From UHGV virus genome UHGV-1379142: a DNA stretch of 62,296 bases; one strand, written 5' to 3'. Each line of letters opens with the position of its first letter. The stretch's first letter is position 1. The translations under genes were made by a program, and so were the position numbers. The notes under the pieces are model-generated. The model worked only from the letters and a program-made list of their open reading frames with translations, had not been told where the DNA came from and made no database searches. The DNA comes from a virus. This document shows positions 1 through 62,190 of the stretch, piece by piece.

Positions 1-120
1 GTATAAACCCTATAAGTAACCTACTTCGTAAGAACTATATACTAGTATATGTACTTAAATAGAACCTACTTCGTAAGTACTTTACTAAGGTATATACCCT
101 ATAAGTTAACCTAAGGTACC
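1..120. repeat. Left copy of ~120-bp inverted repeat (partner 45625..45743, ~97% identity). Contains internal direct sub-repeats AACCTACTTCGTAAG x2 and CCCTATAAGT(T)AACCT x2 and a 14-bp palindrome ATATACTAGTATAT.
   Basis: Reverse complement of 1..120 matches 45625..45743 with 2-3 mismatches; sub-repeats read directly. Confidence 0.9.
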
Positions 121-164
121 AGACTTCAGAAGTAATTTAATCTGAATATTTTTAACTTGTCCTC

Positions 165-2978: not shown

Positions 2979-3681
2979 GAATCCCATTGGGGTCTCTAAA
3001 CTGGGTGAACTCATGGGAACCCTAACAGATATTGCTGAGGGCAATCATGAGCCAAGCTTCAGTACATGAACAAGCATACCATCTCTTACTCACAACTTCC
3101 CTTACGTATCAACAGATTGCAACACAATTGTCTACAACTTTCAAAGTTGTTTGGCGCGTAGCTAACACAAAACTTTCAGATGAAGAAAGAAAAGCACGCA
3201 AAGCTAAGAACTATAGACGTGCTCAACTTGGTAAGCTTAACACTATGTATAATAGAAAGAAGACTAACAGTCCTTTCTACAAAGCTGGCCTTTCATTTGA
3301 CGATGATGGTTACGCCTTAGTGTATAAACCTAAATGGTTTACAGGCACGCGAGGGAACTCAAGCAAAGTCTACGCACATCATGTGGTACTATGCAAAAGA
3401 GAAGGTATGACAAAGATTCCAACAGGTTATCATGTTCATCACATAGATGGTCGTCATGCAAATAATAAAGTTTGGAATCTTATATTGTTAACGTCTACAC
3501 AACATAGACGTCTTCATGATATACTGAAGAAGGTGCAGAGACTAGGAGCCTATGAAGATATAGGACAGCGCCCAGCTTGGATAGACATACTGTTTAGGTA
3601 CTGTCTATGCTTGATGATATAGTCCAATTACCATAGTAATATGGGAAACATGCTTATGTTGTTCGGCATGTAAAATTAAAG
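2979..3681 (+). mobile_element. Group I self-splicing intron (~703 nt) inserted in the PNLQNIP codons of the DNA polymerase gene; carries an HNH homing endonuclease ORF
   Basis: P1: exon-1 3' end AGACCCU pairs with intron internal guide GGGGUCU (2988-2994), with a terminal U.G wobble. P10: exon-2 5' AAUGGG pairs with CCCAUU (2982-2987). Intron ends in G (3681). Spliced product reads DP-NGQNMP, close to consensus DPNLQNIP, in frame. Confidence 0.6.
3032..3622 (+). CDS. HNH homing endonuclease (intron-encoded)
   Basis: HVHHIDGRHANNKVWNLILLTSTQHRRLHD HNH motif; located inside the intron. Confidence 0.7.
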   Translation: MLRAIMSQASVHEQAYHLLLTTSLTYQQIATQLSTTFKVVWRVANTKLSDEERKARKAKNYRRAQLGKLNTMYNRKKTNSPFYKAGLSFDDDGYALVYKPKWFTGTRGNSSKVYAHHVVLCKREGMTKIPTGYHVHHIDGRHANNKVWNLILLTSTQHRRLHDILKKVQRLGAYEDIGQRPAWIDILFRYCLCLMI

Positions 3682-4536
3682 AATGGGCAAAACATGCCCC
3701 GTAAAGGTACCAGCCCCATCAAAACATTCTTCAAATCCCAGAAAGGTGTTATCGTTAATCTTGACTTAGCTCAGATTGAGTGGCGTATTGCTGCTGAACT
3801 AAGTAAAGATCCTGTCATGATTCATGAATTAAACGAAGGCTTGGACATTCACACTGACAATGCTATTCGATTCCTTGATGCTGGAAAATATGAGCGTGGT
3901 TCAGAAGAGTTTAAACAAGTTCGTACAATTGCTAAGACAATATCATTCCGTCTTCTCTATGGTGGTTCAGCGGAAGGTTTCTTTAGAGATCAACGTATGC
4001 CTGACTATAGCTTAAAAAGATGGAGAGAGATTGTTAATGCTTTCTATCAAAAGTATCAAGGTCTGAAACGATGGCAGGATGCTAATATCCAAACAGCTTC
4101 TGCACGTGGGTATATACGTAATCCTTCTGGGCGTGTGCTTACCTTTGACGAAGAGGTAAAGTACGGTATTGAATCTGTAGATGTTAAACAGGTTAAGAAC
4201 TATCCAGTTCAATCTGGTTCTACAGATGTTATGTATTTGTGTATGGTTAAGATCTTAGAGAAGATCCAAGCTAGTGGCATCAACCCTTTGCTTATCCTTC
4301 AAGTACATGACTCTCTTGTGTTTGACTGTACGATAGAAGAAGCAGAAACTTTGTGTCGTATAGGTATAGAAACATTCAAGAGTTTACCAGCACTAGCAAA
4401 AGAATACTTTGGTTGGGATATAGTAGTACCACTTTTAGGTGACTGTGAAGTAGGGTATGACTATGGTAACACTAAGGGATTTAAAGAAGAAGAGATGGAC
4501 AAGATCTTCAAAGATCTTCCAGCTTTTCTCTCTTGA
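3682..4536 (+). CDS. DNA polymerase I (family A) exon 2: palm/fingers with motifs A, B, C
   Basis: Motif A DLAQIEWRIAAE, motif B RTIAKTISFRLLYGG, motif C QVHDSLVFD; in frame with exon 1 after intron removal. Confidence 0.7.
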   Translation, partial: NGQNMPRKGTSPIKTFFKSQKGVIVNLDLAQIEWRIAAELSKDPVMIHELNEGLDIHTDNAIRFLDAGKYERGSEEFKQVRTIAKTISFRLLYGGSAEGFFRDQRMPDYSLKRWREIVNAFYQKYQGLKRWQDANIQTASARGYIRNPSGRVLTFDEEVKYGIESVDVKQVKNYPVQSGSTDVMYLCMVKILEKIQASGINPLLILQVHDSLVFDCTIEEAETLCRIGIETFKSLPALAKEYFGWDIVVPLLGDCEVGYDYGNTKGFKEEEMDKIFKDLPAFLS

Positions 4537-5119: not shown

Positions 5120-6028
5120 ATGTACACAAACAAGTTCAATTTGCCCAAGGCTTTTGAGGATGCTCTTCAACCACAACCTTACGATCCTGTTGGTGCATCA
5201 GACTATAGTGCTACATCTTTGATTGACAGTCCGAGATATGTTCAGCTCTATAAACGACATCGTAATGAGATTGTCGAAGACTGCATGGACCAGTGGTATG
5301 TATGGAGAGGTAACGCAGTACATCATGAGATGGAATCAGTTCTTTCAAAGAATCCAAAGTATTTGGTTGAACGTAAGATCACTCGTTTTGACAAGCCTGA
5401 GAATGGCGACGAGTCAACGTACAGACGGGTCGTCGCAAAGTTTGACCTCTATGATAAAGAGACACAGACTTTATCAGACTGGAAGACGTGTTCCGCGTAT
5501 ATGCATGGCAGTACGGGGAAACAAGAATGGATTAACCAGCTCAACCTTAATGCGTACTTCCTTGAGAAAGAAGGGTATCCGGTAAAAGATGTTGCTATCA
5601 ACGCCATCTATATGGATTGGAGACCTCAATCTGGACGGTACAAAGATGACAAGTATCCCGAATTACCTTTCAACGAATTCCGCTACCGCGTGCTGCCTCT
5701 TGAAGAGCGCGAGTCCTACTACAAGGAACGCCTTCGTCTACACGTGGAGGCCGAATCCTGTAGCGATGACATGCTGCCAGTATGCACTGCGGACGAATGC
5801 TGGGAGAAGCCTGCTAAGTATGCCGTTTACAAGGTAGGAGCAGCGAAGGCCACAAAACTTTGTGACACTCGTGAAGAAGCAGATGAGTACATTCGCCACA
5901 AGAGACTTGGACCTGACTACAAGGTTGAGTATCGACCTGGGGAGAGAACAAGATGTGAGAGGTACTGTCCCGTAAAAGCTTGGTGTAATCAGTATGCAGA
6001 GTACAAGAAAAACCAACTGGGGAGCTAG
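5120..6028 (+). CDS. PD-(D/E)xK nuclease with C-terminal 4-Cys cluster (Cas4/RecB-family-like exonuclease)
   Basis: D..D...E.K-like core (FDLYDKETQTLSDWK) plus C-x3-C ... C-x3-C-x5-C near the C-terminus (CTADEC ... CERYCPVKAWC). GGAG RBS before ATG at 5120. Confidence 0.5.
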   Translation: MYTNKFNLPKAFEDALQPQPYDPVGASDYSATSLIDSPRYVQLYKRHRNEIVEDCMDQWYVWRGNAVHHEMESVLSKNPKYLVERKITRFDKPENGDESTYRRVVAKFDLYDKETQTLSDWKTCSAYMHGSTGKQEWINQLNLNAYFLEKEGYPVKDVAINAIYMDWRPQSGRYKDDKYPELPFNEFRYRVLPLEERESYYKERLRLHVEAESCSDDMLPVCTADECWEKPAKYAVYKVGAAKATKLCDTREEADEYIRHKRLGPDYKVEYRPGERTRCERYCPVKAWCNQYAEYKKNQLGS

Positions 6029-6512
6029 GTACAAAGGTCTTGTTTATATTTACTTGTGCTTGTCTCTAAGCTTCTTCCCGTTGTCGTTCAGTTTTATTTC
6101 ACGCACAGTAGGTATGCACCGCAATGTGTTGTATGATATCATGCGTCAAGTACCTTTGCTGTCTACACAGCAAGATATGCATAAGCAAGCTGCTATCAAA
6201 AATACTACATTTTGTGGTCTACAAAATCCTAGATACAAACTTGATGGTGTATCTTCCATAAAAGGTTATAAGGCAATTCGTCCACCTTCATGGTATACAG
6301 GGTATGTATCAAGAGGTTTTGTTAGAGAGCATATCCTACTGGTGTGTGAGAAGTTTGGTTGGACACAGCTACCAAAAGGATATGAAGTTCATCACATTGA
6401 TATGAACAAGCTAAATAATGACATAAACAATCTAGCTGTTCTTACAAAAAGTGAACATGCTAAAGTGCATAACCAATACAAGGAGTGGAAAGATGCTCAA
6501 GGTACAAGATAG
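5994..6512 (+). CDS. HNH homing endonuclease (free-standing)
   Basis: GWTQLPKGYEVHHIDMNKLNNDINNLAVLTKSEHAKVH; overlaps the end of the nuclease gene. Confidence 0.65.
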   Translation: MQSTRKTNWGARYKGLVYIYLCLSLSFFPLSFSFISRTVGMHRNVLYDIMRQVPLLSTQQDMHKQAAIKNTTFCGLQNPRYKLDGVSSIKGYKAIRPPSWYTGYVSRGFVREHILLVCEKFGWTQLPKGYEVHHIDMNKLNNDINNLAVLTKSEHAKVHNQYKEWKDAQGTR

Positions 6513-9479: not shown

Positions 9480-10600
9480 TAGCATACAGTACTCCCGTTC
9501 TTTATGCGCTTGCAGCTAATGGTAACATTATGATATGGCAAGCTCATGTATATGAGAACGCTGATAGTACAGCCAGTATTCTTTTTCAATCAGGTTACGA
9601 AGGAAAGACTATCAAAGAGTCTCATCGTTCCTATGACAAAGGAAAGAATGCTGGTAAGAAGAATGCTACGACTGCCTTGCAACAAGCTATTAGTGAAGCG
9701 AAGTCTCGCTTTAAAAAACAGCTTGACAAAGGATACCGGGAGAGTAAGTCTGAGTTGACTGCTCTCCCTATTCGTCCTATGCTAGCGCAGTCTTACATAG
9801 AACATCAGGATAAAGTTAAAGACGATACTATCTACATATGTCAACCTAAACTTAACGGTGTACGTTGTACTGTTCAGCGACATGGAAATAAGTTGACATT
9901 CCTGTCTCGTACTGGTAAAGTTTACGATGTGTTGTATCATCACAATGCTCTGTGCAAAGAGCTGTTTGATGTTATGCCAGAAAGCTGTGTATGGGATGGG
10001 GAGATATATTGTCACGGTATGCCGTTGCAAGACATTGTGTCTGCTGTTAAAGCATACAGTCCGGCAACAAAGAAGTTACAATACTGGGTATACGATACAA
10101 TAAGTGATGAACTTCAGTTTGAACGTATAGCTAGGTATCGTGCTTTGCTTGCTGATAAGAAGTACAAACAAGTTGTCGCTTGTCCTGTTGACTATGTTAA
10201 AGGAATAGAAAACATAAAGAAGAAACAAGAAGACTATCTTGCTCAAGGCTTTGAAGGATTGATGCTTAGGAAGTACAGCTCTAAGTATCGTCAAGGTTAT
10301 AGATCTTATGATCTTCTAAAGTACAAACAGTACAAAGATTTTAATGCTAAGATAGTTGGCTTTACTTCCGATGTGAATGGAGCTATCATCTTTATGTTCA
10401 GACTACACGGCGAACCCTTTAATGCTGTACCTGCGTTCTCTTTGAAGGAACGACAGGATATGTATAAAGAGGGAAGTAACAAACCTTTTACTTTTATAGG
10501 CAAGACTGCAAACATTCGTTGCGTAGAATTTTCTAAGAAGGGTCTTCCTATAGGTAACCCTGTTGTTACTCAAATCAGACTGGAGGAGGACGTTGAGTAA
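9458..10600 (+). CDS. ATP-dependent DNA ligase
   Basis: Motif I KLNGVR (KxDG-type), motif IV EGLMLRK, motif V LLKYK. Confidence 0.7.
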   Translation: MQEESSVIAYSTPVLYALAANGNIMIWQAHVYENADSTASILFQSGYEGKTIKESHRSYDKGKNAGKKNATTALQQAISEAKSRFKKQLDKGYRESKSELTALPIRPMLAQSYIEHQDKVKDDTIYICQPKLNGVRCTVQRHGNKLTFLSRTGKVYDVLYHHNALCKELFDVMPESCVWDGEIYCHGMPLQDIVSAVKAYSPATKKLQYWVYDTISDELQFERIARYRALLADKKYKQVVACPVDYVKGIENIKKKQEDYLAQGFEGLMLRKYSSKYRQGYRSYDLLKYKQYKDFNAKIVGFTSDVNGAIIFMFRLHGEPFNAVPAFSLKERQDMYKEGSNKPFTFIGKTANIRCVEFSKKGLPIGNPVVTQIRLEEDVE

Positions 10601-11159
10601 ACGTACATGGATAACTCCAGAAGATCTATTAGCAATTAGGTATGATTTATATGACACATCTCTGACCACATATGATATAGCATACAAGCACAACTGTTCA
10701 CAAAGAACAGTAGTAAAGGTTCTCTTTCATAAGGATTTACAAGAGCTGAGAGAACTACGCAAACAAGTAGCTAATACAAACAGAGCTTTGTATAATGCAA
10801 ACAGGTGGAGGCATGGATGCAAGGTATCTGTTGGTGCTGATGGTTATCTTTATAGAAGAGTACCAGACTGGTATGATATATCTTCCTTGGCAAAGCGGCC
10901 TAGAAACATTAAACCTAGACAGGCAGTACACGTACTGATTGTCTGCAAGTATCTAGGATTAGCTTCGTTGCCAAAAGGTTATGTAGTTCATCACAAGAAT
11001 CTGAAACGTAACGACAATCGTATATCGAACCTTTTGCTTATGTCTATAAGCGATCACAGATATTACCATACTACTGGGATTTACAGAAAGACAGGAACCT
11101 ATCCTGCATGTAAACGAACTGCGTTTGGTATACTTCCAGATTCTTACCAAGTAGAGTAA
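10593..11159 (+). CDS. HNH homing endonuclease (free-standing, TTG start with strong SD)
   Basis: GYVVHHKNLKRNDNRISNLLLMSISDHRYYH HNH motif. tGGAGGAGGacg-TTG start overlaps ligase stop by 8 nt; the ORF-track start at 10563 is also TTG. Confidence 0.55.
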   Translation: MSKRTWITPEDLLAIRYDLYDTSLTTYDIAYKHNCSQRTVVKVLFHKDLQELRELRKQVANTNRALYNANRWRHGCKVSVGADGYLYRRVPDWYDISSLAKRPRNIKPRQAVHVLIVCKYLGLASLPKGYVVHHKNLKRNDNRISNLLLMSISDHRYYHTTGIYRKTGTYPACKRTAFGILPDSYQVE

Positions 11160-27632: not shown

Positions 27633-28090
27633 CTCCCAAAAGCCAACACTAATAAGCTTTTTGTTTCTGTTAGTTGCGAACCTTGTAATGTAGACGTTTG
27701 GATATTAGCACGTCCCTTTTCTTTTTTCCACACACAAGTGTGTGGTATTTGTGAACCAGTACCTAAATTATCAATTGAAGAAACAACAACATATGCAGTG
27801 TCAATAAATTCTACAGGCCATGTAATTGTTTTACCTGATACATTAGGACTTAAGGATGTGCATAATCCTTGAATAAGTTTACCACCTGGAAATTTTACAT
27901 ACCAACCGTCTGTATCATTACCACCTGTAACAACGCCTTCATTATCTATACGAGACGACAAAGCGTTGACTTGTTCTTGCAAAGATTTTAAGGCAGAGTT
28001 AACAGAAACAAGGTATTCATAAGTAGACCAGTCATCAGTATAGGGAACATCTGAAAGTTGTACTTGTTTTACTGTTGAAGTTGTAGCCAT
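27623..28090 (-). CDS. hypothetical virion protein
   Basis: ORF track; coupled to neighbours. Confidence 0.4.
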   Translation of the reverse strand: MATTSTVKQVQLSDVPYTDDWSTYEYLVSVNSALKSLQEQVNALSSRIDNEGVVTGGNDTDGWYVKFPGGKLIQGLCTSLSPNVSGKTITWPVEFIDTAYVVVSSIDNLGTGSQIPHTCVWKKEKGRANIQTSTLQGSQLTETKSLLVLAFGRWT

Positions 28091-30081
28091 TACTTAGCAT
28101 CTCCTTCGATTAGTTCACCCATACTAGAAGCAAGCGTTATCGAATGAATATAAGCATTCGACTTAATCTCAACCTCGATAGTCTCACCTCTGAAACCAGA
28201 AGGAAGTCTAAAAGGTTTAGAGTCCGTTACTTCTCTAGAATACTTAAGCTCACCATCTACATAGTAGTTAAAGATAGTAGCGTCCGCTAGTTCGAGCTCA
28301 TTAGTTTTACACCAACCATTTATTGGCTGTCCATTCATAACACGGGCCGCGAGACTAGAACCAGTTAGCTTACCTTCCCAAACATGATCATCTTCTTTCT
28401 GTTGAGATTGGGAAGTCATCATAACACGGGCCGCGAGACTAGAACCAGTTAGCTTACCTTCCCAAACATGATCATCTTCTTTCTGTTGAGATTGGGAAGT
28501 CATCATAACACGGGCCGCGCTCAAAGTAAACAAACCTTGAGGACTAACGTTGATCTTAGATCTCCAACGAAAAGATTTGTTTACACGTGACTCTGAAGCA
28601 AACGAACAAAGACTGTACTGCGTACCGTTGTCTAGAGGATAGCATACATACAACTGTGACTGTTCTATATCATTATACACAACTTTAGCAGGTTGTGTTG
28701 TATAGACAAGACCAGAAGATACAATGCTATTGTATACCGTACTGTATGTATAACTATCTAAGTCAAAGATTATACCAGCAGCGGTGTCTGTAGGATTAGC
28801 AAAGAAACCATAGTAGGTGTTATTAAGAAAAGCACCTTTCAATGAATCAGGATTCAACGGAAGCCACTCGTCTTGCGTAATCAACTTCTCTGTAATAAAA
28901 GTAGGACTAGTACTGTTGATAAGTACCAAGCCATTCTGACTAGCAAAAATAACACCATTACGAGTATTTACTATAGAGTCTGCAGACACACACGGACAGT
29001 TCTCTTGAATAGCTTTTGTTGTAGGACTAGAAGGATTTTGTACTACAATAAGTACAGGAGCAGCTTCTGTACACACAACAATAGTATTACCAAAAGAACC
29101 AAGACCAACGATTGGATAGTCGATTGTCACGGTGTATTCGTACGGCCAAGCGTGCGGAGAGTTCCAGTCAGAAACATAAATAGTAGAATCTTTGTAAGCA
29201 GCAAACAAACCGTTCTGCAAAGATACTAAACCTTTGAGACCTTCTACTGGAGCATCCCAATACATAGAAGGACAGTACTCACCTAAGTCTGCGCTAGTCT
29301 TAGAATCAACATACTCGTAGTGATCTGTCTGCCATGTAGCTGCTGTGTTATTTGTAGTTCTGTTTGAGTTAACATCAAACTCGTCAACAAAACTATACAA
29401 AGCCTGACCAGCAGAAGTTACTTCTGATCTGTACACATACACCTTATTGATGCCAATTGCTGCACCATCTACTTCATCAGTAAGAGGATCAGCGATCTGT
29501 AACTTTACAGTTTGTCCCGGTCTAACATCAACAGTTAGATTCTTACCTTCGTTTGCAGTCAAAGGTTGACTAGCCTTACCTACGTCGATAGTACCATCAA
29601 TCCATTTTCTTACATAACAGTAGACATAAGATCGTGCTTCAATATCACCTTCACCAGTACCGTCAACACTCATGATAGAAGATTGCTTTGGTTCAGGTAT
29701 ACCAGCCTTATAGTAGTTACCTTCTGTTTCGTCAAGACCATTATTATAATCTTGATCTTTCAGCAAAGAACTATCTGTAACAAAGAATCCATTCTCATTC
29801 ATGAAGTAGATACGATTGTTCTCGTCATCATAAATAGGACTCTTTGCAACACGTGTGTTGTACGGCCACATTAGCCAGTGATAGTTTTTATTCTTCCATT
29901 TATACCGATAGATAGTCTCTACAGTAGTAGGTATATACTGCAAGATCTCATCGGCATAGTGTGGGCGAAGCTCTCCACTCCGCAGCTTAACGTCGAGAGC
30001 TTCCTGTGCAAGAGTAGCGGGCAAAAGCCGTGGAGCCAAACGAGGAGCAATCCCGCTAAACTGTTGGAATGTTAGTTTCAT
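28090..30081 (-). CDS. tail/baseplate structural protein (663 aa) containing an exact 28-aa tandem duplication
   Basis: Large ORF in tail module; duplicated SLAARVMMTSQSQQKEDDHVWEGKLTGS. Confidence 0.45.
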   Translation of the reverse strand: MKLTFQQFSGIAPRLAPRLLPATLAQEALDVKLRSGELRPHYADEILQYIPTTVETIYRYKWKNKNYHWLMWPYNTRVAKSPIYDDENNRIYFMNENGFFVTDSSLLKDQDYNNGLDETEGNYYKAGIPEPKQSSIMSVDGTGEGDIEARSYVYCYVRKWIDGTIDVGKASQPLTANEGKNLTVDVRPGQTVKLQIADPLTDEVDGAAIGINKVYVYRSEVTSAGQALYSFVDEFDVNSNRTTNNTAATWQTDHYEYVDSKTSADLGEYCPSMYWDAPVEGLKGLVSLQNGLFAAYKDSTIYVSDWNSPHAWPYEYTVTIDYPIVGLGSFGNTIVVCTEAAPVLIVVQNPSSPTTKAIQENCPCVSADSIVNTRNGVIFASQNGLVLINSTSPTFITEKLITQDEWLPLNPDSLKGAFLNNTYYGFFANPTDTAAGIIFDLDSYTYSTVYNSIVSSGLVYTTQPAKVVYNDIEQSQLYVCYPLDNGTQYSLCSFASESRVNKSFRWRSKINVSPQGLFTLSAARVMMTSQSQQKEDDHVWEGKLTGSSLAARVMMTSQSQQKEDDHVWEGKLTGSSLAARVMNGQPINGWCKTNELELADATIFNYYVDGELKYSREVTDSKPFRLPSGFRGETIEVEIKSNAYIHSITLASSMGELIEGDAK
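28336..28519. repeat. Perfect 84-bp tandem duplication (2 copies + 16-bp partial third), in frame within the 663-aa gene
   Basis: 28336-28419 identical to 28420-28503; 28504-28519 repeats the first 16 nt. Confidence 0.85.
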
Positions 30082-40070: not shown

Positions 40071-42152
40071 TTACGCCTGTACCTGTCCCTGATTCTGATT
40101 CGTTTCCATATCTTCCCTTAGTTGGCGAAGACTCGTAATAAGAGCAGACGGACTAACACCTTCAGCACGAGCGGTCTCAACCATATCGGTCATCCACTCA
40201 CGTTCTTCCTGAGCAGCCTTTTCTTGCTGCTGCTTCTGTACTTCAATTTCCTTATCCGTATAAACAAGATTATCGTCGGACAGATCAAGAGAATCTGCAA
40301 TCGAACGGATAATATTCGGACGCTTGACTGTACCCAGATCAGTAGGATTATTCGTAATCTGAGCAAAGTTAATCAAAGACTGCGCTCTGATTTCCTTAGC
40401 AATCAAAGAAGAAGTACCACGAGCAACTACAGCATAGTCACCCTTGATGTCTGCATCACTGTTAAACTTCATGTTCCAGTGATACATAGCAGAAATGAAA
40501 GGCTTTGTGATACCGTCGTCAAAGTTCTTAACTTGATCCTTGATGGTGATATTAGCAGAACCCATCAACATAGACAAGCCAGAAGCAGTACGACCAGCAG
40601 CACCAGAAGGTTCTCCCCACATCTGACGAGGAATGGAAGTAACTTCATCCCCGTAGCTGCGGAAGAGTTCAATCATACGTTCAAACTCAGTTGTGTAACT
40701 AGGAAGCTGAAACACACGAATCGCAGGATTCGCAGCGTCTGCACCTTCACCAGTACGCATCCAAACCTTAAAGGGATATACGTCACGAGGATCTTCATCT
40801 TCGGACATAAGATCAAGGTTTACTTCAATCTGAGGTCCAGCAGAGATAGCTGCGTTATCAAGCATAGCTCTGAACGCACTATTAATAAGCTCCTGAACAT
40901 CAGACATAATGGACGGAATACCTTCACCAAAGATAGAGGTTTCGTCCTTGTCATAGTAATAGAAGAAGTAAGGCCACTTAACGCCCTCCATAGGCATGAG
41001 AGACGCTTTAATAACGTGGTCGCCAAGTACCCAAATGTTTGCAGCAAGTTCAACTTGACCCTGCATACGTTCAGGAATATCTACACCTACTTCATTCAAA
41101 TCGTCAGCATCAACAAAACCCCAGAACTCCAACACCTCGTACTTCTTTGAGTGAGCAGCATCAGCGATACCACTGTCAATTACATCACCCATAGAAGTGA
41201 GTTGGTTCTCAAAGTCTTGTTTCTGGTAGTCACCATCAGGATTCTCAGTAAGATACGTAGCGATAATGTCTCCGTTAAAGTCAGACCTTTTCGCTAAGCC
41301 TATTACGTCATGCTTGTCCATCTTTCTACGCTGAATGATAAATCTACATTCAGACGGACAAGTCGATTCCATGTCCGGGTAAATATCCCAGATACGTACG
41401 TTTTCAATGAACGGAGTAATCGAGTCATAGTCCTGAAGAATCCACTTCTCTTTGTCTCCATTCTTTTCCTTTTTGTAGTACTGACGGTTTTCAGAAATAG
41501 AAACAAGCGGGCCTTTGAGAATACCAGTACCGTACAGATTACCAGAATGCAGAACATCTCTCATAATCTCACGATACTTAAGCTCAGCAAGCTGATCTTC
41601 GATAACCTTAGACATCTTGTTGGCTTGACTCTTGGCTTCGTCTTGCATCAAGACATAAAGCTGTTCAGAAGAAATCTGTTGTCCTTGTTCTTGAGAAACA
41701 AGTTCAAGGATTGCTTTTTCTTTCTGAGTACTAAATTGTGGAATAGGTGTAGGTTCAATTCCCCAGTTCTTATCACCATTCGCAGGGAACAGCAAGTCAG
41801 AAAGCCTACTGTCTACAGTCTTTACTTTCGTACGAGTCATGCGTACAAAAGCCTTACTGCGAAGAGGATCCATACGTTCTAGAACTTCTGGAGAGTAGAT
41901 ACCTTTGTATTGGCGAAGAGCATTCAACCACTTTTCTTCAATAGTCTTACGCGCACTGTCCGATCTTTCATAAGCATCTCGGACAAACGCAGCCAAACCT
42001 TGTGGCGTTTCAGGTGCTCCTTCGGTATCTTCTGTTCCATTGTCTTCGTCTACTATCATCTTAGAAGAAACTTCTTCAAGAAAGTCTTCTACATCTTTAT
42101 CAGTAGCTGCATCAACAACAGTTCCAGAACCGAAAAAATCTTTTTCAGTCAT
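40071..42152 (-). CDS. Portal protein
   Basis: 693-aa ORF directly downstream of TerL; GGAGG RBS. Confidence 0.55.
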   Translation of the reverse strand: MTEKDFFGSGTVVDAATDKDVEDFLEEVSSKMIVDEDNGTEDTEGAPETPQGLAAFVRDAYERSDSARKTIEEKWLNALRQYKGIYSPEVLERMDPLRSKAFVRMTRTKVKTVDSRLSDLLFPANGDKNWGIEPTPIPQFSTQKEKAILELVSQEQGQQISSEQLYVLMQDEAKSQANKMSKVIEDQLAELKYREIMRDVLHSGNLYGTGILKGPLVSISENRQYYKKEKNGDKEKWILQDYDSITPFIENVRIWDIYPDMESTCPSECRFIIQRRKMDKHDVIGLAKRSDFNGDIIATYLTENPDGDYQKQDFENQLTSMGDVIDSGIADAAHSKKYEVLEFWGFVDADDLNEVGVDIPERMQGQVELAANIWVLGDHVIKASLMPMEGVKWPYFFYYYDKDETSIFGEGIPSIMSDVQELINSAFRAMLDNAAISAGPQIEVNLDLMSEDEDPRDVYPFKVWMRTGEGADAANPAIRVFQLPSYTTEFERMIELFRSYGDEVTSIPRQMWGEPSGAAGRTASGLSMLMGSANITIKDQVKNFDDGITKPFISAMYHWNMKFNSDADIKGDYAVVARGTSSLIAKEIRAQSLINFAQITNNPTDLGTVKRPNIIRSIADSLDLSDDNLVYTDKEIEVQKQQQEKAAQEEREWMTDMVETARAEGVSPSALITSLRQLREDMETNQNQGQVQA

Positions 42153-42157
42153 GATTC

Positions 42158-43573
42158 TTAGTAGCCTCCAATCTGGCTAGCAGCGCGATATTTACGTTGT
42201 GTGTTAAACAAGAACTTCTTTTCACGCTTGTGGACATACTCCATCATAGCGTACTGTAAAGCATCATGAATATGCGAGTACTCATTCTTAACAGGAGATG
42301 CCTTATAAAGAATACCGTTTACAGTCTTAGACTCAGCATACTTGTATTCTGAGACAAAACCTTTTCTTAGAGCCACACACTTAGGCCCAAGTTTAAAGCG
42401 TCCCTTTAAGCGAAGGAACTGAGCAACGGATTCAAAACGTGGAGTCCAATTGTTTGTCTTACCAAGCTTAGCAGGCAAGTTACATTCTTTAAGAATCTCC
42501 ATGCCAGACTTAGCATCATTCATAGATCTCTGCGATGTTGCAGGGTCACACACAACTTTAAAGTTATTCACAATCCAAGGGTATTCTGCTGTAATCTTAG
42601 GCCAAAGATGTTCTTCACAAAATTCTTTCAAAGAACAGTTGTCTGTGCAGATCTCATCAAAGACAAGCACAGTACCGTCAGGAGCTTGTTGTGTAAAAGC
42701 AGCTGAAGGTGTGAGACCTTGGTCCATACCAATTACAACAGGAACACCACGAAGAGGAAGCATTTCATCATCTACATGATGTTCAAGATCACTATAGTCT
42801 TTGTAGACAGGTTTACCTTTCTTAACTTCACCATAGTTGTTCATGACGTTGACGTTGATGAAATCTTCGTCAGCACCCATACACATGGTTTCATAGTAAC
42901 CTTTGTCTAGATTCTTTAAGTTCTCTGCTTCAGGGTTAAGTACAAGTTTACCGTCAACTTTAATCATAGCAGGAGGTTGACGATAAAAGCTATGACCTTC
43001 TGGCTTATCTTCTTCTGCAAGTCTGTAAAGCCAGTGGTCAGTACTTACTGCGTTGTAGTCAAGAATAATAAACGGATTAACAGGCCCGCCATCTTTCATA
43101 GCAGGGTATCGTTTAAAACGTGTCTTGACTAGTTGGAAAGTTCCTTCTGATAGTTCAGAAGCTTCGTTAAGGTGAGCAGAGGTAACTTCAAGAGAACGAA
43201 GCTTTTCAGCAGAACGATCATCGTCAACAGCTATAAACAGAACTTCAAGGTCGACCTTTGTTCCGTCAGCTAAAGGATACTTAATCCTGCCGACGATAGG
43301 GGTAGAATATGTAATAGTGATCTTGTCTTTAAACCATGACAACCATGTTTTGATTGTGGTTGACTTCAGGGCAGGATACGTAGCACGAACAACAAGGTGT
43401 CTACTGTGTCTTACCCCATGCTCATCTGGTTTCTGACGCATAGCATTAAAGAACGCTTGAAAGATACAGCCTGAGGATTTGCCAGAACCTACAGGCCCCA
43501 TCACGAACAAATATGGATTAGGATCACGATGAACCTTTGCAAACGTTGGCAGGACTTGATAATCAATATCCAT
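42158..43573 (-). CDS. Terminase large subunit
   Basis: N-terminal Walker A VMGPVGSGKSSG; C-terminal nuclease-like region; 471 aa. Confidence 0.7.
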   Translation of the reverse strand: MDIDYQVLPTFAKVHRDPNPYLFVMGPVGSGKSSGCIFQAFFNAMRQKPDEHGVRHSRHLVVRATYPALKSTTIKTWLSWFKDKITITYSTPIVGRIKYPLADGTKVDLEVLFIAVDDDRSAEKLRSLEVTSAHLNEASELSEGTFQLVKTRFKRYPAMKDGGPVNPFIILDYNAVSTDHWLYRLAEEDKPEGHSFYRQPPAMIKVDGKLVLNPEAENLKNLDKGYYETMCMGADEDFINVNVMNNYGEVKKGKPVYKDYSDLEHHVDDEMLPLRGVPVVIGMDQGLTPSAAFTQQAPDGTVLVFDEICTDNCSLKEFCEEHLWPKITAEYPWIVNNFKVVCDPATSQRSMNDAKSGMEILKECNLPAKLGKTNNWTPRFESVAQFLRLKGRFKLGPKCVALRKGFVSEYKYAESKTVNGILYKASPVKNEYSHIHDALQYAMMEYVHKREKKFLFNTQRKYRAASQIGGY

Positions 43574-44608: not shown

Positions 44609-44662
44609 CTTGACATTCCTTGAAATAATGGTTATAATTAAATAGGAACTATAACCTTTATA

Positions 44663-44691
44663 ATATATAATACATATTGTAATTTTGTCAA
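44663..44691 (-). promoter_or_regulatory. Sigma70-like promoter P5 driving the late (- strand) operon (TTGACA-17-ATATAT)
   Basis: Reverse complement reads cctcTTGACAaaattacaatatgtatt-ATATAT. Confidence 0.5.
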
Positions 44692-44735
44692 GAGGTTATA
44701 GTAAAAAAAAAAATAAAAAAGAAGAGAAGAATATC

Positions 44736-45608
44736 ATGAGTGAGATTGTAAGAGAAAGACAACTTTGGAAGCGTACAGTTTATCTTAACGAAGATAGCCC
44801 TGAACCTTATAAGATACCTAATTGTAGATGTCAGATAAGGTTGTCTGATTATGTTCCTGAGAATTCTTCAGACAAAGGTATGTACACAAAAGGAGATCTT
44901 GCTAATGATATGAACATCTTCTTTAACTACTTACCTGAGTCAGAAGTAAACAGAATGGTCAACTGCTTCTTCTGGTGTATAGCTACTGCTTTAAAGAACA
45001 GAGGTAAGGTAGACATTAAAGACTTTGCTTTGTTCATGGTTGAAGAGAGAAAGATAAAAGATACTATTACACAAAGTGTACGTGGGCCTCTTGGTATTCC
45101 ACGTAGAGTGCGTAGAGCTCCTATTATGAGATTTATAACACTAAGAGAGTACCCACAACTTAAGTCAGTTATACTTCCAAGAACTAAGGACTACTTTGCA
45201 GGAACAGAACGTACATGGTATACATGGAAGTTAAGTGCAACTAATCAACCGTACTACTATGCTAGACACTGGAGAAGAGGTGCTTTGTTCTTACAACAAG
45301 TCTTTGACAAGACATTCGAGTATACAGGTTATACAGATGAATATCTAGAAATGGCTGAGAAAGGAGTAATAGAACCTTTTGGTACAGAACGAAAGCATAT
45401 GAATAAGATGTACTTAAGTCTTAACACACCACCTTATGTTAAGGCAGCTTTCACAGATGAACTTATCAAAGTACCAGCTAATCATGTAGCAACAGAGTAC
45501 TTTACTGATCCTTCTGTGAAGAGAAAGATATGCAGTTTGACTATCACTCCAGAAGAGGCAGAGAAGTATTTAAAACAAGGTCAACAACCAAGTGTTCAGA
45601 CTTCTTAG
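44736..45608 (+). CDS. hypothetical AT-rich ORFan (290 aa) between the late promoter and the right inverted repeat
   Basis: ATG 44736 chosen over track start 44685, which lies inside P5. Confidence 0.4.
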   Translation: MSEIVRERQLWKRTVYLNEDSPEPYKIPNCRCQIRLSDYVPENSSDKGMYTKGDLANDMNIFFNYLPESEVNRMVNCFFWCIATALKNRGKVDIKDFALFMVEERKIKDTITQSVRGPLGIPRRVRRAPIMRFITLREYPQLKSVILPRTKDYFAGTERTWYTWKLSATNQPYYYARHWRRGALFLQQVFDKTFEYTGYTDEYLEMAEKGVIEPFGTERKHMNKMYLSLNTPPYVKAAFTDELIKVPANHVATEYFTDPSVKRKICSLTITPEEAEKYLKQGQQPSVQTS

Positions 45609-45624
45609 GCTGTTCTAGGGTATA

Positions 45625-45743
45625 GTACCTTAGGTTAACTTATAGGGTATATACCTTTATAAAGTACTTACGAAGTAGGTTCTATTTAAGTACATATACT
45701 AGTATATAGTTCTTACGAAGTAGGTTACTTATAGGGTTTATAC
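45625..45743. repeat. Right copy of ~120-bp inverted repeat (partner 1..120)
   Basis: See left copy. Confidence 0.9.
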
Positions 45744-45769
45744 CTTTCTTACTGTTTTAAGTAATAAGA

Positions 45770-45812
45770 AAGAGCCCACGGTTACGTAAGGTAACTATGG
45801 GCTCTTTTAGTA
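45770..45812 (+). terminator. Intrinsic terminator (may be bidirectional)
   Basis: AGAGCCCA-cggttacgtaaggtaacta-TGGGCTCT + TTTTAG. Confidence 0.55.
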
Positions 45813-45814
45813 TC

Positions 45815-45846
45815 CTATGGTATAATCACTAATTGGAACTTGTCAA
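45815..45846 (-). promoter_or_regulatory. Promoter-like module P11 on - strand (ggtacTTGACAagtt-16-TATACC), mirror of P10 at the window end
   Basis: Reverse complement gggtacTTGACAagttccaattagtgatTATACCatagg is nearly identical in layout to 62186-62222 gggtcTTGACAacgaagtattcgtgctTATACCtatag. Confidence 0.35.
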
Positions 45847-46700
45847 GTACCCTTATATACTCTTATATATAATATATACTATAGGTATCTTAGGGGGCTG
45901 GCCGGGGGCTGTTGCTCTGGTTACTGTTGGTTAGAGTATGGTGAGAGTATAGGGGAGGTATGAACACATAGACTTCTACGAATGTTGTGTACGTATGTGT
46001 ACTATACATATACTAAAGAATGATTATGATGAAGTCATTCGGCTGGTAAAAGTTCTAGAAATTTACGAGCGAAGCTGGTGTCACATGTACCCCCAGTGCT
46101 CCGCTGTGTCCCACGGGTAGGGTAAGGTACCCTCTCCCCCTGTTGAAAAGGTATGGGTATACCTATGGTAAACAATGTTACCTATGGGTAACTAACTTAT
46201 GTTACTAATGGGTAGCATAGGAAAAGGTAATAATTACAGTACTTTACGTAAGTATGCGTAATCATTGTACTTTTTGGTATACCCCTAGTTCCCTATCGCA
46301 ATACCCTGAGCATGATACCAAAGATAACTAATAATATCCAATACTTACCAATAGTTTCCAATAATTTCAATATATTACAAAAAGGTTAATAATGACAACT
46401 ACTTATGGTTAGGCATGTACAAAAAGTACAAAGATTTAGCATGTTTACCATAGGTTCAACTTATTGTACCGCATGTTTCCAAAGGTACAAGATTTTGAAC
46501 GTAGTCCTAAATACCTATAGTTCTTATAGTTCTTTGCAAAGCAAGGTTCCATATGTACTATAGAATTAAGCCCCGGCGCGAACCTAGGTACAAATATTTG
46601 TACTAAACCGGGTATGCCAAGTTCAATGATTTCAACAACTTACAACATGGCACGGGGCTTGCTATATGAGAGGCAAACAGAGCTAAAAGAGCCAAGAAAA
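45840..46700. other. ORF-free region dense in GTAC-core palindromes and short iterons; candidate origin of replication or packaging site
   Basis: Palindromes TGTACAAAAAGTACA, GTACAAATATTTGTAC, GGTATACC x2, GGTACC. Iterons GCATGTTT(A)CCA(T/A)AGG x2. CCTATGGTAAAC and its reverse complement. Confidence 0.3.
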
Positions 46701-46727
46701 AAGAGTGAAAAAACCTCTTGACAAGCT

Positions 46728-46756
46728 CAAAAAGCTATGCTTTACTAAGCCCACGA
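46728..46756 (+). promoter_or_regulatory. Early promoter P6 with A-rich UP-like upstream region
   Basis: aaaaacctcTTGACAagctcaaaaagctatgc-TTTACT. Confidence 0.45.
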
Positions 46757-46799
46757 AAAGCAAAGAGAGGCAAAAAAAGCCAAGAGGTCAAGAAAACAC

Positions 46800-46828
46800 T
46801 TGACAAAGGTTTTAAACCTTGTTAATCT
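46800..46828 (+). promoter_or_regulatory. Early promoter P7 (TTGACA-17-TAATCT)
   Basis: aaaacacTTGACAaaggttttaaaccttgt-TAATCT. Confidence 0.45.
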
Positions 46829-47041
46829 GCTTTTCAACAAAGATTGTTCTTTTACAAACTCATAGAGGCCAGAAGTTAAGAACTTCCATAAGTACCTGTT
46901 TTTCTTGGGAATACCAGAAGTAGGCGGACGTTAAAAAGGCATAAGCCTTTTCTTACTTGCGGATACTACGGTATCTTACAGAGTAGTTGCCAGCCGGAAT
47001 AATGAGCCACAAAAGAAAGTAAACAGGATGCAAAAAAGTTC

Positions 47042-47075
47042 TTGACAAGGCCAAAAAGTTGTGAGAGAACAAGCC
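47042..47075 (+). promoter_or_regulatory. Promoter-like repeat unit P8 (paralogue of the P6 unit; -10 unclear)
   Basis: aaaaagttcTTGACAaggccaaaaag ... AAGCCCAacgaaagagag, paralogous to the P6 unit (... AAGCCCAcgaaaagcaaagagag). Confidence 0.3.
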
Positions 47076-47159
47076 CAACGAAAGAGAGAAAAACCGGAAC
47101 TCAATAGAGGCCGCCCTAGTAGTAAGAATAGCATTCTGAACAAGAGCGTGATAGCCTGA

Positions 47160-47198
47160 AAACGTATATCTGCGAAAGTACGGTTTTTTCACAAACAG
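47160..47198 (+). terminator. Intrinsic terminator downstream of P8 (bulged stem + T6)
   Basis: gAAAACGTA-tatctgcgaaag-TACGGTTTTTTcac. Confidence 0.45.
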
Positions 47199-47599
47199 GG
47201 CACTAGCTATATGTGTCCTCCGCTTGGGATACAGGCATATATACAAGTCTGTATCATGCGTCTAGCCGAAAGGTTAAGCGAAAGATAGGATTCAGCGGTT
47301 AAGCTGTATACAGCGCAAAACCTGAAAATCGCGTATGTCTTAAAGTAATTGTGCTTTAGTTGCGGTTATTTAAGCCATGATTCAACGGTAGCTGTATATG
47401 GTACTGAAAAGATTGTCTAGTCTATATACTCAAAGGGGCTTGTATGCTACCTTGTGCGAAGTAATAGCTAGATGCCGAAACAAAGTTTGCTGGCGTTCTC
47501 GTGCATAGTTGCGAGTAAAGGCGAACGGAAAGGCAGACTAACAACTAGACTATACTACAGCGATAAACCGTGAACGGTAGTACAAACTAGCAACTTGTG

Positions 47600-47800
47600 C
47601 TATGATAATTCGGCTCAAAGGCTGTAGTGAAAGTAGCCTTAGACAAGCTACAGCCGTAAGGTGTTGGTGTTAAAAGGATGCGTTTCATCCTGCATTGGAG
47701 ACAACACAACGGCTATAAATAATAAACTGTAGTGCATTAGACTGTAAACAATTTAACAGGTACAAGGGTAAAGGGTGCATAGTTGCGTTTTACCCTTGTA
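47600..47800 (+). other. Structured leader upstream of the first early ORF: nested hairpins
   Basis: GGCTGTAG/CTACAGCC, GGATG/CATCC inside GTTGGTGTT/AACACAAC, and the 11-bp perfect stem ACAAGGGTAAA/TTTACCCTTGT, read directly. Confidence 0.35.
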
Positions 47801-47833
47801 TCCAATTAAATTGTTCAACAAAGGAGAAAAACC

Positions 47834-48364
47834 ATGCACGATAAGCCACAAGGTTATAAGAGGCAAGCAAACGCCTTGAATATCTGTAAGAATCAGGGAC
47901 TTTCCAATCTTTACCAAACAGAACAGGAACCGGCTGTATATAGTCCTGTTTGGAACAAGAACGGGGAAGTTGTTGGCTATAAGGACAACACGGGGAAGTT
48001 TTTAGATTATCGTTCCCTTCCTGTTGACGACATAACCGGCTATCCTATTCTTCCAAGTCTTGCTAACGTGCCATATCTCTTTGCAGAATACGGACAAAAC
48101 AAGTCTATTTCTGGCCGTCATGGTAAGAGGATACAGATTCGGAAAGTTCGCATATCCGAACGCCCTCGTGCCAAGTATCTTACCCAAAACATTGGCGTAG
48201 GTGAGCCTCTTGATAAGCAAGATGGGTACTCTTGCGCTCTGGTAACACTCGACAAGCCGGAAAAGAGGCGCCGTGCTCATAACCGCCATGCCCGCGTGTT
48301 TGTGCATACTAGCGAACAGATAACCGAAACACGGTCTAGCCGTCGTTTCAGAAACGTTGATTAG
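47834..48364 (+). CDS. hypothetical early protein with strongly basic C-terminus
   Basis: AAGGAG RBS; higher-GC block. Confidence 0.45.
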   Translation: MHDKPQGYKRQANALNICKNQGLSNLYQTEQEPAVYSPVWNKNGEVVGYKDNTGKFLDYRSLPVDDITGYPILPSLANVPYLFAEYGQNKSISGRHGKRIQIRKVRISERPRAKYLTQNIGVGEPLDKQDGYSCALVTLDKPEKRRRAHNRHARVFVHTSEQITETRSSRRFRNVD

Positions 48365-54305: not shown

Positions 54306-54430
54306 CCACCTTCCTTTTCCATACTAACTACTCGGACTGAGGCTGGTTATCTCATGGCTGGTCTCAGTCCGTTTACTTCAACACCATGTTGTAAGTAGTT
54401 GAAATCATTGAACTTTTTAAAGGAAACAAT

Positions 54431-62169: not shown

Positions 62170-62190
62170 ACTTTATAGGGTACAGGGTCT

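Follow-up and report, generated by a model that had tools for sequence, protein, structure and literature searches.

What does a phage keep in 2.2 kb of DNA that carries no gene? The question is raised by UHGV virus genome UHGV-1379142, a stretch of 62,296 nucleotides (nt) that was analysed as a whole and is called the window below. The window is a phage genome of ca. 62.3 kb, and its relatives are contigs of 59-63 kb from human-gut metagenomes. In a gap at 45609-47833, between the stop codon (45608) of a gene for a 307-amino-acid (aa) protein and the ATG at 47834, no conserved open reading frame (ORF) was found, and every relative (ca. 33 human-gut contigs) keeps a gap of 2.3-2.6 kb between homologs of the 307-aa gene and of the 176-aa gene that follows it. 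A first-pass annotation, made from the sequence of the window, had proposed an ORF-free control region with early promoters, and the retention of the gap in all relatives supports this proposal. With moderate confidence, we read the gap as a two-part control region, in which the left half carries DNA signals and the right half specifies a structured RNA. That a conserved structured RNA exists on the plus strand is, on the comparative evidence, very probable.

The gap does not appear to hide a gene. The statement of the first-pass annotation that it lacks ORFs of at least 60 aa is literally false, as a 97-codon, TTG-started ORF, the largest in the gap, runs antisense to the structured RNA on the minus strand (46953-47246). 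Relatives do not keep this ORF, and the absence of a conserved ORF stands. Recoding of TAG, TGA or TAA was considered and rejected: it yielded nothing longer than 147 codons and no consistent frame, and the open frames of the relatives were not common to each other. No common small ORF was found among relatives downstream of the leftward promoter described below.

The first signals of RNA structure came from a MAFFT alignment of the gaps, followed by RNAalifold analysis of 11 and later 16 sequences. Conservation was very high over 47452-47808 (85-98% by column), with visible compensatory changes, and RNAalifold predicted 178-192 pairs, 69-81 of them with double changes. For the test set, contigs from ENA, Logan and metagenomes were added, and the collection was reduced to 23 sequences of less than 96% identity (61-95%). 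Their consensus structure consisted of 287 pairs in 41 helices. In this structure, 94.1% of cells were paired, while shuffles reached 85.9±0.2% and slid controls 33-40%; changes on both sides occurred in 114 pairs, compared with 67.6±4.4 in shuffles (none of 500 reached 114) and 22-30 in slid controls; and the covariation score was 0.265, compared with 0.13 and 0.05, respectively. The structure was predicted on the same alignment that was used for the pair counts, a circularity that the slid and shuffled controls address only in part. All sequences come from one narrow clade, in which many of the changes go back to common ancestors; this leaves only ca. six to eight independent lineages and weakens the case. 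The single leader sequence of the window also folds better than shuffles of it (z = -4.8). The long structured leader described in the first-pass annotation is strongly supported by covariation, and by this comparative measure its fold is shown to be under selection.

The helices contain 639 G·U cells, many of them invariant. When the same helices are read on the minus strand, pairing falls to 83%, and the consensus energy is -120, versus -173 on the plus strand. Because of the invariant G·U pairs, we assign the RNA to the plus strand. The same asymmetry bears on the idea that the covarying hairpins act in DNA, as cruciforms or single-strand hairpins of the kind used at N4 early promoters or rolling-circle origins. 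Such a role would be in keeping with the many local inverted repeats and with the small covarying inverted repeats held in the promoter spacers. However, G·U cells are tolerated on the plus strand only, and domains of 75-210 nt with multi-helix junctions are not cruciform-like, so that we consider a function in DNA extremely unlikely.

The structured part is longer than had been thought. The first-pass annotation began it at 47200, while consensus helices begin near 46835-46846, ca. 370 nt further upstream. Helices 8, 9 and 11 (46923-46991), which lie upstream of the promoter-like unit P3, covary too, and transcription must therefore start at the preceding units, P1 or P2; the RNA would begin near 46835. 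Downstream of this point, covariation delimits a series of domains, separated at one place by a variable linker (Table 1). In the domain at 47554-47628, the unpaired sequences GAUAAA, GAUAA and CUCAAAG are invariant. The leader as a whole is conserved at 66-83%, compared with 66-92% for the 176-aa gene, about equal to the flanking genes.

These observations also bear on the possibility that the leader serves as passive insulation, its C-poor, tightly folded sequence guarding the early transcript against Rho and 5' decay, or that it matters as DNA for transcription-driven genome entry, as does the left end of T7. The region is indeed purine-rich (GC skew +0.14 and AT skew +0.19 over 47001-48000), the fold is made up of successive, locally closed domains and has few long-range helices that are credible, and the leader runs directly into the early genes. 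Insulation, however, would need neither the invariant unpaired loops of 47554-47628, nor the column conservation observed over 47452-47808, nor a leader conserved about as well as the 176-aa gene. We therefore regard this explanation as unlikely, and continue to favour an RNA whose structure itself is functional.

The leader ends in an irregular hairpin, helix 41 of the consensus, which is 96% paired and contains eight pairs with double changes. A perfect hairpin that had been noted in the leader is present within it, as a 12-base-pair (bp) stem (47761-47772/47789-47800). The terminal hairpin stops ca. 1 nt 5' of the Shine-Dalgarno sequence of the first early gene and no U-tract follows it; a terminator scan and folding revealed no terminator between the structured RNA and the first ORF. 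By analogy with known systems, the hairpin is a candidate processing site for a double-strand-specific RNase. In some relatives (L004, L005 and L008, each at ~5835-6000; L166, 8760-9029; and L168, 8645-8914), an extra small ORF lies between the terminal hairpin and the homolog of the 176-aa gene. Since a different small ORF follows the RNA in these relatives, we conclude that the RNA is a module of its own, not tied to one downstream gene.

An intrinsic terminator at 47160-47198, and with it a small RNA of ca. 110 nt extending to that terminator from a promoter labelled P8, had also been proposed within what is now the leader. The putative terminator stem is 4-5 bp long, with a free energy (ΔG) of -4.4 kcal/mol (z = -0.5), it was not called by the terminator scan, and its T-run occurs only in the window's own lineage. 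Because the terminator is weak, uncalled and unconserved, neither it nor the small RNA is supported. The conserved feature at this place is, instead, a small hairpin (47147-47174), whose stem (helix 16) covaries and whose loop, GCCUGAAAACGU, is invariant.

Upstream of the leader and inside it, the three units with an A-tract and CTTGACA that had been noted are present, at 46717, 46799 and 47041; the position originally given for the first, 46728, was off by ca. 10 nt. Exact TTGACA hexamers with 17-nt spacers begin at 46718, 46800 and 47042. The units share the A-tract, the -35 element, the spacer, a weak -10 element, [T/G]AGA[G/A][T/C], and TTTCAAC at the expected start. The description of tandem promoter boxes of the TTGACA type is borne out by conservation: of the 31 contigs scanned, 29 have at least two CTTGACA boxes at equivalent positions, and the other two keep one exact box. 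P1 is an extra copy, present only in the lineage of the window, L170 and L182. P2 (46800) is, by alignment, the ortholog of the first box of the relatives, TTGACA-17-TAGAGT, which in L002 has 10 of 12 consensus matches and passes the consensus scan. The P2 start site would be near 46835. P3 has a non-canonical -10 element, GAGAAC, that fails in all sequences; its sequence pairs with 46846-46897 as the 3' strand of helices 4-6, which close the first domain, and helix 4 is 97% paired, with almost all changes wobble-compatible. P3 may be an internal promoter, a part of the RNA, or both. The 17-nt spacer of P2 (46806-46822; alignment columns ~134-150) forms a small inverted repeat, with arms that covary from lineage to lineage (AGCC-GCAA-GGCT, AGTC-GAAA-GACT and AAGGTTTTAAACCTT), and this repeat could be an operator or a hairpin in read-through transcripts.

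Table 1. Features of the gap and of its surroundings (positions are those of the window).
Feature	Position	Strand	Remarks
SU10-type portal	40071-42152	-	
Large terminase	42158-43573	-	
Leftward genes	44608 down to 16567	-	include structural genes
307-aa gene	44685-45608	+	only rightward gene preceding the gap
Inverted copy (131 nt) of window 1-131	45613..45743		~45-nt direct repeats (45631-45764)
Strong hairpin, 17-nt arms	45769..45807	both	predicted terminator
Leftward sigma-70-type promoter	45817..45847	-	TTGACA-N16-TATACC; both hexamers kept in relatives
Conserved DNA block	46021..46165		GATTATGATG(A/C)AG unit, then G/C-run island
GGTACC	46126		present as written
GGTATACC	46156 and 46276		present as written
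AT-rich patch with [CT]AATA repeats	46320-46440		candidate unwinding element and iterons
Best-conserved DNA-level block	46405..46690		dyad, GTTCAA/TTGAAC repeats, hairpin, 32-nt element
TGTACAAAAAGTACA	46416		present as written
GCATGTTTACCATAGG	46441		present as written
GCATGTTTCCAAAGG	46472		present as written
GTACAAATATTTGTAC	46588		present as written
P1 promoter-like unit	46699..46746	+	A-tract, -35 at 46718-46723, 17-nt spacer, TTTACT
P2 promoter unit	46781..46835	+	-35 at 46800-46805, 17-nt spacer, TAATCT at 46823-46828, then TTTCAAC
Structured leader RNA	46835..47819	+	~985 nt, multi-domain
Leader domains	46846-47070; 47197-47403; 47414-47551; 47554-47628; 47636-47733; terminal hairpin	+	delimited by covariation
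P3 unit	47032..47076	+	A-tract, -35 at 47042-47047, then GAGAAC at 47065-47070; ~94% conserved
Variable linker	47071-47196	+	includes conserved hairpin 47147-47174
Terminal irregular hairpin	47744..47819	+	33 pairs; ΔG -31.2 kcal/mol, z = -7.4
First early ORF	47834..48364	+	176 aa, no family match; Shine-Dalgarno AAAGGAG at 47820-47826
Inverted copy (31/32) of 46619-46650	54384..54415	+	inserted after a terminator hairpin, before the ribosome-binding site of a 94-aa gene

The left half of the gap (45744 to ~46700) is different in kind and works, as judged from its sequence, at the DNA level. A second large RNA was sought there by consensus folding of 45880-46700 and was rejected, as few pairs and only 3-5 covarying ones were obtained on either strand. 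At its left end, the hairpin at 45769-45807 (ΔG -25.8 kcal/mol on the plus strand and -22.9 on the minus strand; z = -6.8 and -6.2) is a predicted bidirectional terminator, which on the plus strand, where UUUU follows, would end the 307-aa gene and which would also stop a leftward transcript. The leftward promoter of the window (45847) points straight into this hairpin; its counterpart in L002 is TTGACA-17-TATACT (11 of 12 matches).

Two blocks to the right of this promoter are conserved as DNA. In the first (46021-46165; column conservation 0.76-0.79), the GATTATGATG unit occurs in one to three copies among relatives and is followed by the G/C-run island (46079-46150), GTACCCCC ... GTGTCCCACGGGTAGGG ... 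CCCTCTCCCCC; the block has few consensus pairs, with only three covarying pairs on either strand. The second (46405-46690; 0.78-0.94) holds an imperfect 17-nt dyad, GGTTCAACTTATTGTAC ... GTACAAGATTTTGAAC (46452-46500), several copies of GTTCAA/TTGAAC and a small covarying hairpin (46537-46552). Since it yields only 41-52 consensus pairs, 4-5 of them covarying, it is not a large RNA.

The short motifs that had been listed for the left half fared unevenly. The GTAC-core palindromes are present as written, GTAC is 1.7-fold enriched in the gap (19 copies versus 10.9 expected), and two of the three genomic copies of GGTATACC lie inside it; however, in relatives most of these palindromes are not palindromic, are absent, or fall within lineage-specific insertions. 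Palindromic GTTAC..GTAAC repeats in the left half are lineage-specific as well. Both of the so-called iterons (GCATGTTT..AGG units) were found, at 46441-46456 and 46472-46486.

A replication origin in the left half is possible, and we put it forward tentatively. The AT-rich patch (AT content 0.76-0.79, versus a genome 99th percentile of 0.713) contains [CT]AATA repeats at 46339, 46349, 46359 and 46368, phased by 10, 10 and 9 bp, within the densest such cluster of the genome (six in 45 nt, versus 0.08 expected). Relatives have short, phased repeats of ca. 10 nt at this place, with differing sequences. An AT-rich unwinding-type element beside phased repeats and a dyad resembles the layout of iteron origins, and this is a resemblance only. 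The patch, the phased repeats and the dyad with its GTTCAA repeats lie between divergent promoters, which makes an origin plausible: the repeats would be binding sites for a phage or host DNA-binding protein, and opening would be helped by negative supercoiling from divergent transcription. The minimum of cumulative GC skew lies near 43-45 kb, just where gene orientation switches, and for this reason provides no independent support for an origin, which limits the case for one. As for packaging, the window has no terminal direct repeat; no terminus is visible because the related contigs of 61-63 kb are circularly permuted relative to each other, and their different openings fit circular or permuted assemblies.

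Untranslated transcripts serve the replication origin in plasmid ColE1 (RNA II) and in lactococcal phage c2, and a primer or origin RNA could likewise be suspected here, as an untranslated, folded transcript directly adjoins the AT-rich, iteron-bearing block in a phage that encodes its own primase, helicase and DNA polymerase. Unlike in those systems, the AT-rich element precedes the promoters, whereas a primer would hybridise downstream of them; the 3' end of the RNA abuts a ribosome-binding site and continues as mRNA, and a search of its end by eye for a conserved R-loop segment rich in G or C gave none. We therefore consider an origin RNA highly unlikely. Geometry and the G·U asymmetry, respectively, disfavour the primer and DNA-hairpin explanations.

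Two sets of repeats connect the gap with distant sites. The sequence at 45613-45743 is 95% complementary to window positions 1-131 and consists of three 45-nt units; one copy precedes the helicase gene and the other follows the 307-aa gene. The ~45-nt repeats carry TAGGTTA(A)CTTATAGGGT(A/T)TATACC in each inverted copy. At the 45.6-kb site, the repeat is found only in the lineage of the window and L006 and is absent in other relatives. The contig begins exactly at the repeat, as would be expected if the assembly graph were circular and contained one inverted repeat; the repeat could also let the 45-kb segment flip. The repeat motif TAGGTTAACTTATAGGGTATA was considered as a promoter of the T7/SP6 type and rejected: it occurs only in the two inverted copies and near 62174 and 62227, not before genes. 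The second set involves the 32-nt element at 46619-46650, which lies inside the GTTCAA-repeat block and is conserved in all relatives. Its inverted copy at 54384-54415 is present only in the window's lineage, other relatives passing directly from the terminator to the ribosome-binding site. A conserved partnership, such as an antisense RNA and its target, is thus excluded for these two sites, and the second copy could be a newly acquired operator site or antisense target.

The gene layout makes the gap the divergence point of leftward structural genes and rightward early and replication genes. A 2330-aa protein with an LPD38 domain is encoded among the leftward genes. Rightward genes extend from 47834 to the window's end and resume at position 1, reaching as far as ca. 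16.5 kb; they begin with small genes of no assigned function, followed by those for primase, DnaB-type helicase, family-A DNA polymerase, exonuclease, ligase and thymidylate synthase. Promoters, a terminator and origin-like repeats are what is expected at a phage early/late divergence point, and in this respect the promoter region is ordinary. The polymerase is encoded in two ORFs (1872-2999 and 3694-4536), interrupted by an HNH endonuclease ORF (3032-3622), and two more HNH ORFs lie inside the replication module (5994-6512 and 10563-11159).

The proteins that neighbour the gap had no usable functional match in PDB, Pfam or PHROGs; the 307-aa protein has a weak, sub-threshold HU-like stretch. 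The terminase of the nearest cultured relatives is only 30-37% identical, and the non-coding DNA of the gap had no match among GenBank phages. The best explanation is a podovirus-like gut phage with a T7-like replication module and sigma-70-type promoters. A crAss-like or N4-like phage with promoters for a virion RNA polymerase of its own was considered and gained no support: the only matches of the 2330-aa protein are to the LPD38 "polyvalent protein" domain and to PHROGs that are uncharacterised. In the window as a whole, no gene for a phage RNA polymerase was recognised. The most AT-rich spot of the genome (44609-44720; up to 0.84 AT) holds canonical promoters back to back, TTGACA-17-TATAAT rightward for the 307-aa gene and TTGACA-16-TATATA with a long T-tract leftward for the structural genes. 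Canonical TTGACA-17-TATAAT promoters (e.g., at 44609), together with AGGAG-type ribosome-binding sites, suggest a host with sigma-70-like signals. Elsewhere, a perfect tandem duplication of 2 x 84 nt (28 codons; 28335-28502) was observed in a 663-aa ORF on the minus strand (28090-30081). In relative L164 (2349-4757), the large terminase subunit is 802 aa long rather than 471 aa and shows a faint LAGLIDADG match, which suggests an intein or an inserted homing endonuclease.

Taken together, the features of the gap would be used as follows. A bidirectional terminator would end the 307-aa gene, and the conserved leftward promoter would fire away from the region. Host RNA polymerase would start at the tandem A-tract/TTGACA promoters, that is at P2, at its extra copy P1 and perhaps at P3; the first product would be a purine-rich, untranslated RNA of ca. 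0.9-1.0 kb with about six independently closed domains, and transcription would run on, with no terminator, into the early genes. The RNA would work as RNA, its invariant internal loops binding a host or phage factor, and the 33-pair terminal hairpin would be cut by a double-strand-specific RNase, as at R0.3 of T7, which would free a stable non-coding RNA from the early mRNA. The structured RNA is probably the 5' leader of the early operon. Whether it is processed and acts by binding a factor is a good deal less certain, and we suggest this only with reserve.

Several further points weigh against this reading. The -10 elements of the window are poor (TTTACT, TAATCT and GAGAAC), none of the three units is called by the consensus scan, and P3 may be RNA structure rather than a promoter. 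The start sites, the processing and even the expression of the leader are inferred from sequence. No recognisable RNA-binding domain was found in the flanking 176-aa and 301-aa proteins.

No RNA family in Rfam accounts for the leader. Rfam 15 gave no match at the gathering score in the window, and none in the loci of five relatives; at E values up to 10 over 45500-48000, the best match, of 29 bits versus a gathering score of 60, lay on the minus strand over promoter and terminator. The scan of the leader proposed in the first-pass annotation, when run, thus matched no catalogued family; the models covered include those of GOLLD, ROOL, OLE and HEARO as well as group I and II introns, riboswitches, T-box, 6S, RNase P and tmRNA. 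No tRNA or tmRNA was found in the window. In exact-pattern scans, of which three covered viral contigs, one metagenomes and one bacterial genomes, the RNA turned up only in this clade, apart from chance matches. We conclude that the leader is a new, clade-restricted large structured RNA within an ordinary control region. Structured bacterial or phage RNAs of more than 500 nt are rare, and OLE, GOLLD, ROOL and HEARO each led to unexpected biology. Comparative support for the present RNA is strong, its strand is fixed and its domain boundaries are clear; from its place in the genome it would be made first, from early promoters, and its phage clade occurs in many human-gut metagenomes.

Short structured-RNA candidates of 29-151 nt have been collected from IMG/VR intergenic regions, with 8,495 candidates from DNA viruses (Fremin, Bhatt and Kyrpides 2023, PMC10690425). 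The source of the data is the same, and so is the approach, namely covariation in phage intergenic regions; the account of these short candidates describes no multi-domain leader of ca. 1 kb; individual hairpins of the leader may be among them.

The leader shares with GOLLD, ROOL, OLE and HEARO a size class of 600-1000 nt, many helices and junctions, conserved unpaired nucleotides and carriage by phages. It differs from them in position, being the probable 5' leader of an operon rather than a separate gene close to tRNAs, in consisting mostly of locally closed domains in a row, and in its very narrow distribution. The likeness raises the possibility of action in trans: the RNA could be a decoy or sponge for a host defence or regulator, or an "ornate" self-assembling RNA such as ROOL or GOLLD, for which phage association is typical. 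A large and strongly constrained RNA of several domains, which comes first in transcription from the early promoters and is separable from the ORFs that follow it in different relatives would suit such a role, but no terminator and no demonstrated processing site would release it, it is not similar to the models of those four families, and the exact-pattern scans place it in only one phage clade. Action in trans of this kind is therefore quite unlikely. In a related proposal, the leader represents a new class of large phage non-coding RNA that would be made before all other products of infection, be released by cleavage of the early transcript, and act in trans, either on a host factor (a defence system, RNA polymerase, the ribosome or an RNase) through its invariant loops or by self-assembly like ROOL and GOLLD; this seems to us rather unlikely as well.

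Cis-acting antitermination leaders, such as the put RNAs of HK022 and the nut sites of lambda, provide another comparison. As in those phages, a structured RNA comes right after early promoters, and intrinsic terminators lie within the operon that follows (e.g., 54333-54371). Unlike put RNA, which has ca. 70 nt and two stem-loops, the leader is ca. 14-fold larger. The left end of T7 carries tandem host promoters, A1, A2 and A3, and the R0.3 RNase III site before gene 0.3. The leader described here differs from that of T7 in its length (ca. 1 kb versus ca. 0.4 kb) and in its covariation-supported multi-domain fold; no phage RNA polymerase gene is recognised, and cleavage by RNase III is putative. 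In other respects the organisation resembles that of the T7 group. A non-coding stretch heads the early genes, predicted tandem promoters for the host polymerase are arranged so that upstream transcripts carry the downstream promoters in their leader, and the replication genes (family-A polymerase, primase, helicase, exonuclease and ligase) are of the T7 kind. As in the T7 group, a long irregular hairpin stands just before the first ribosome-binding site, and this hairpin is present and conserved at 47744-47819.

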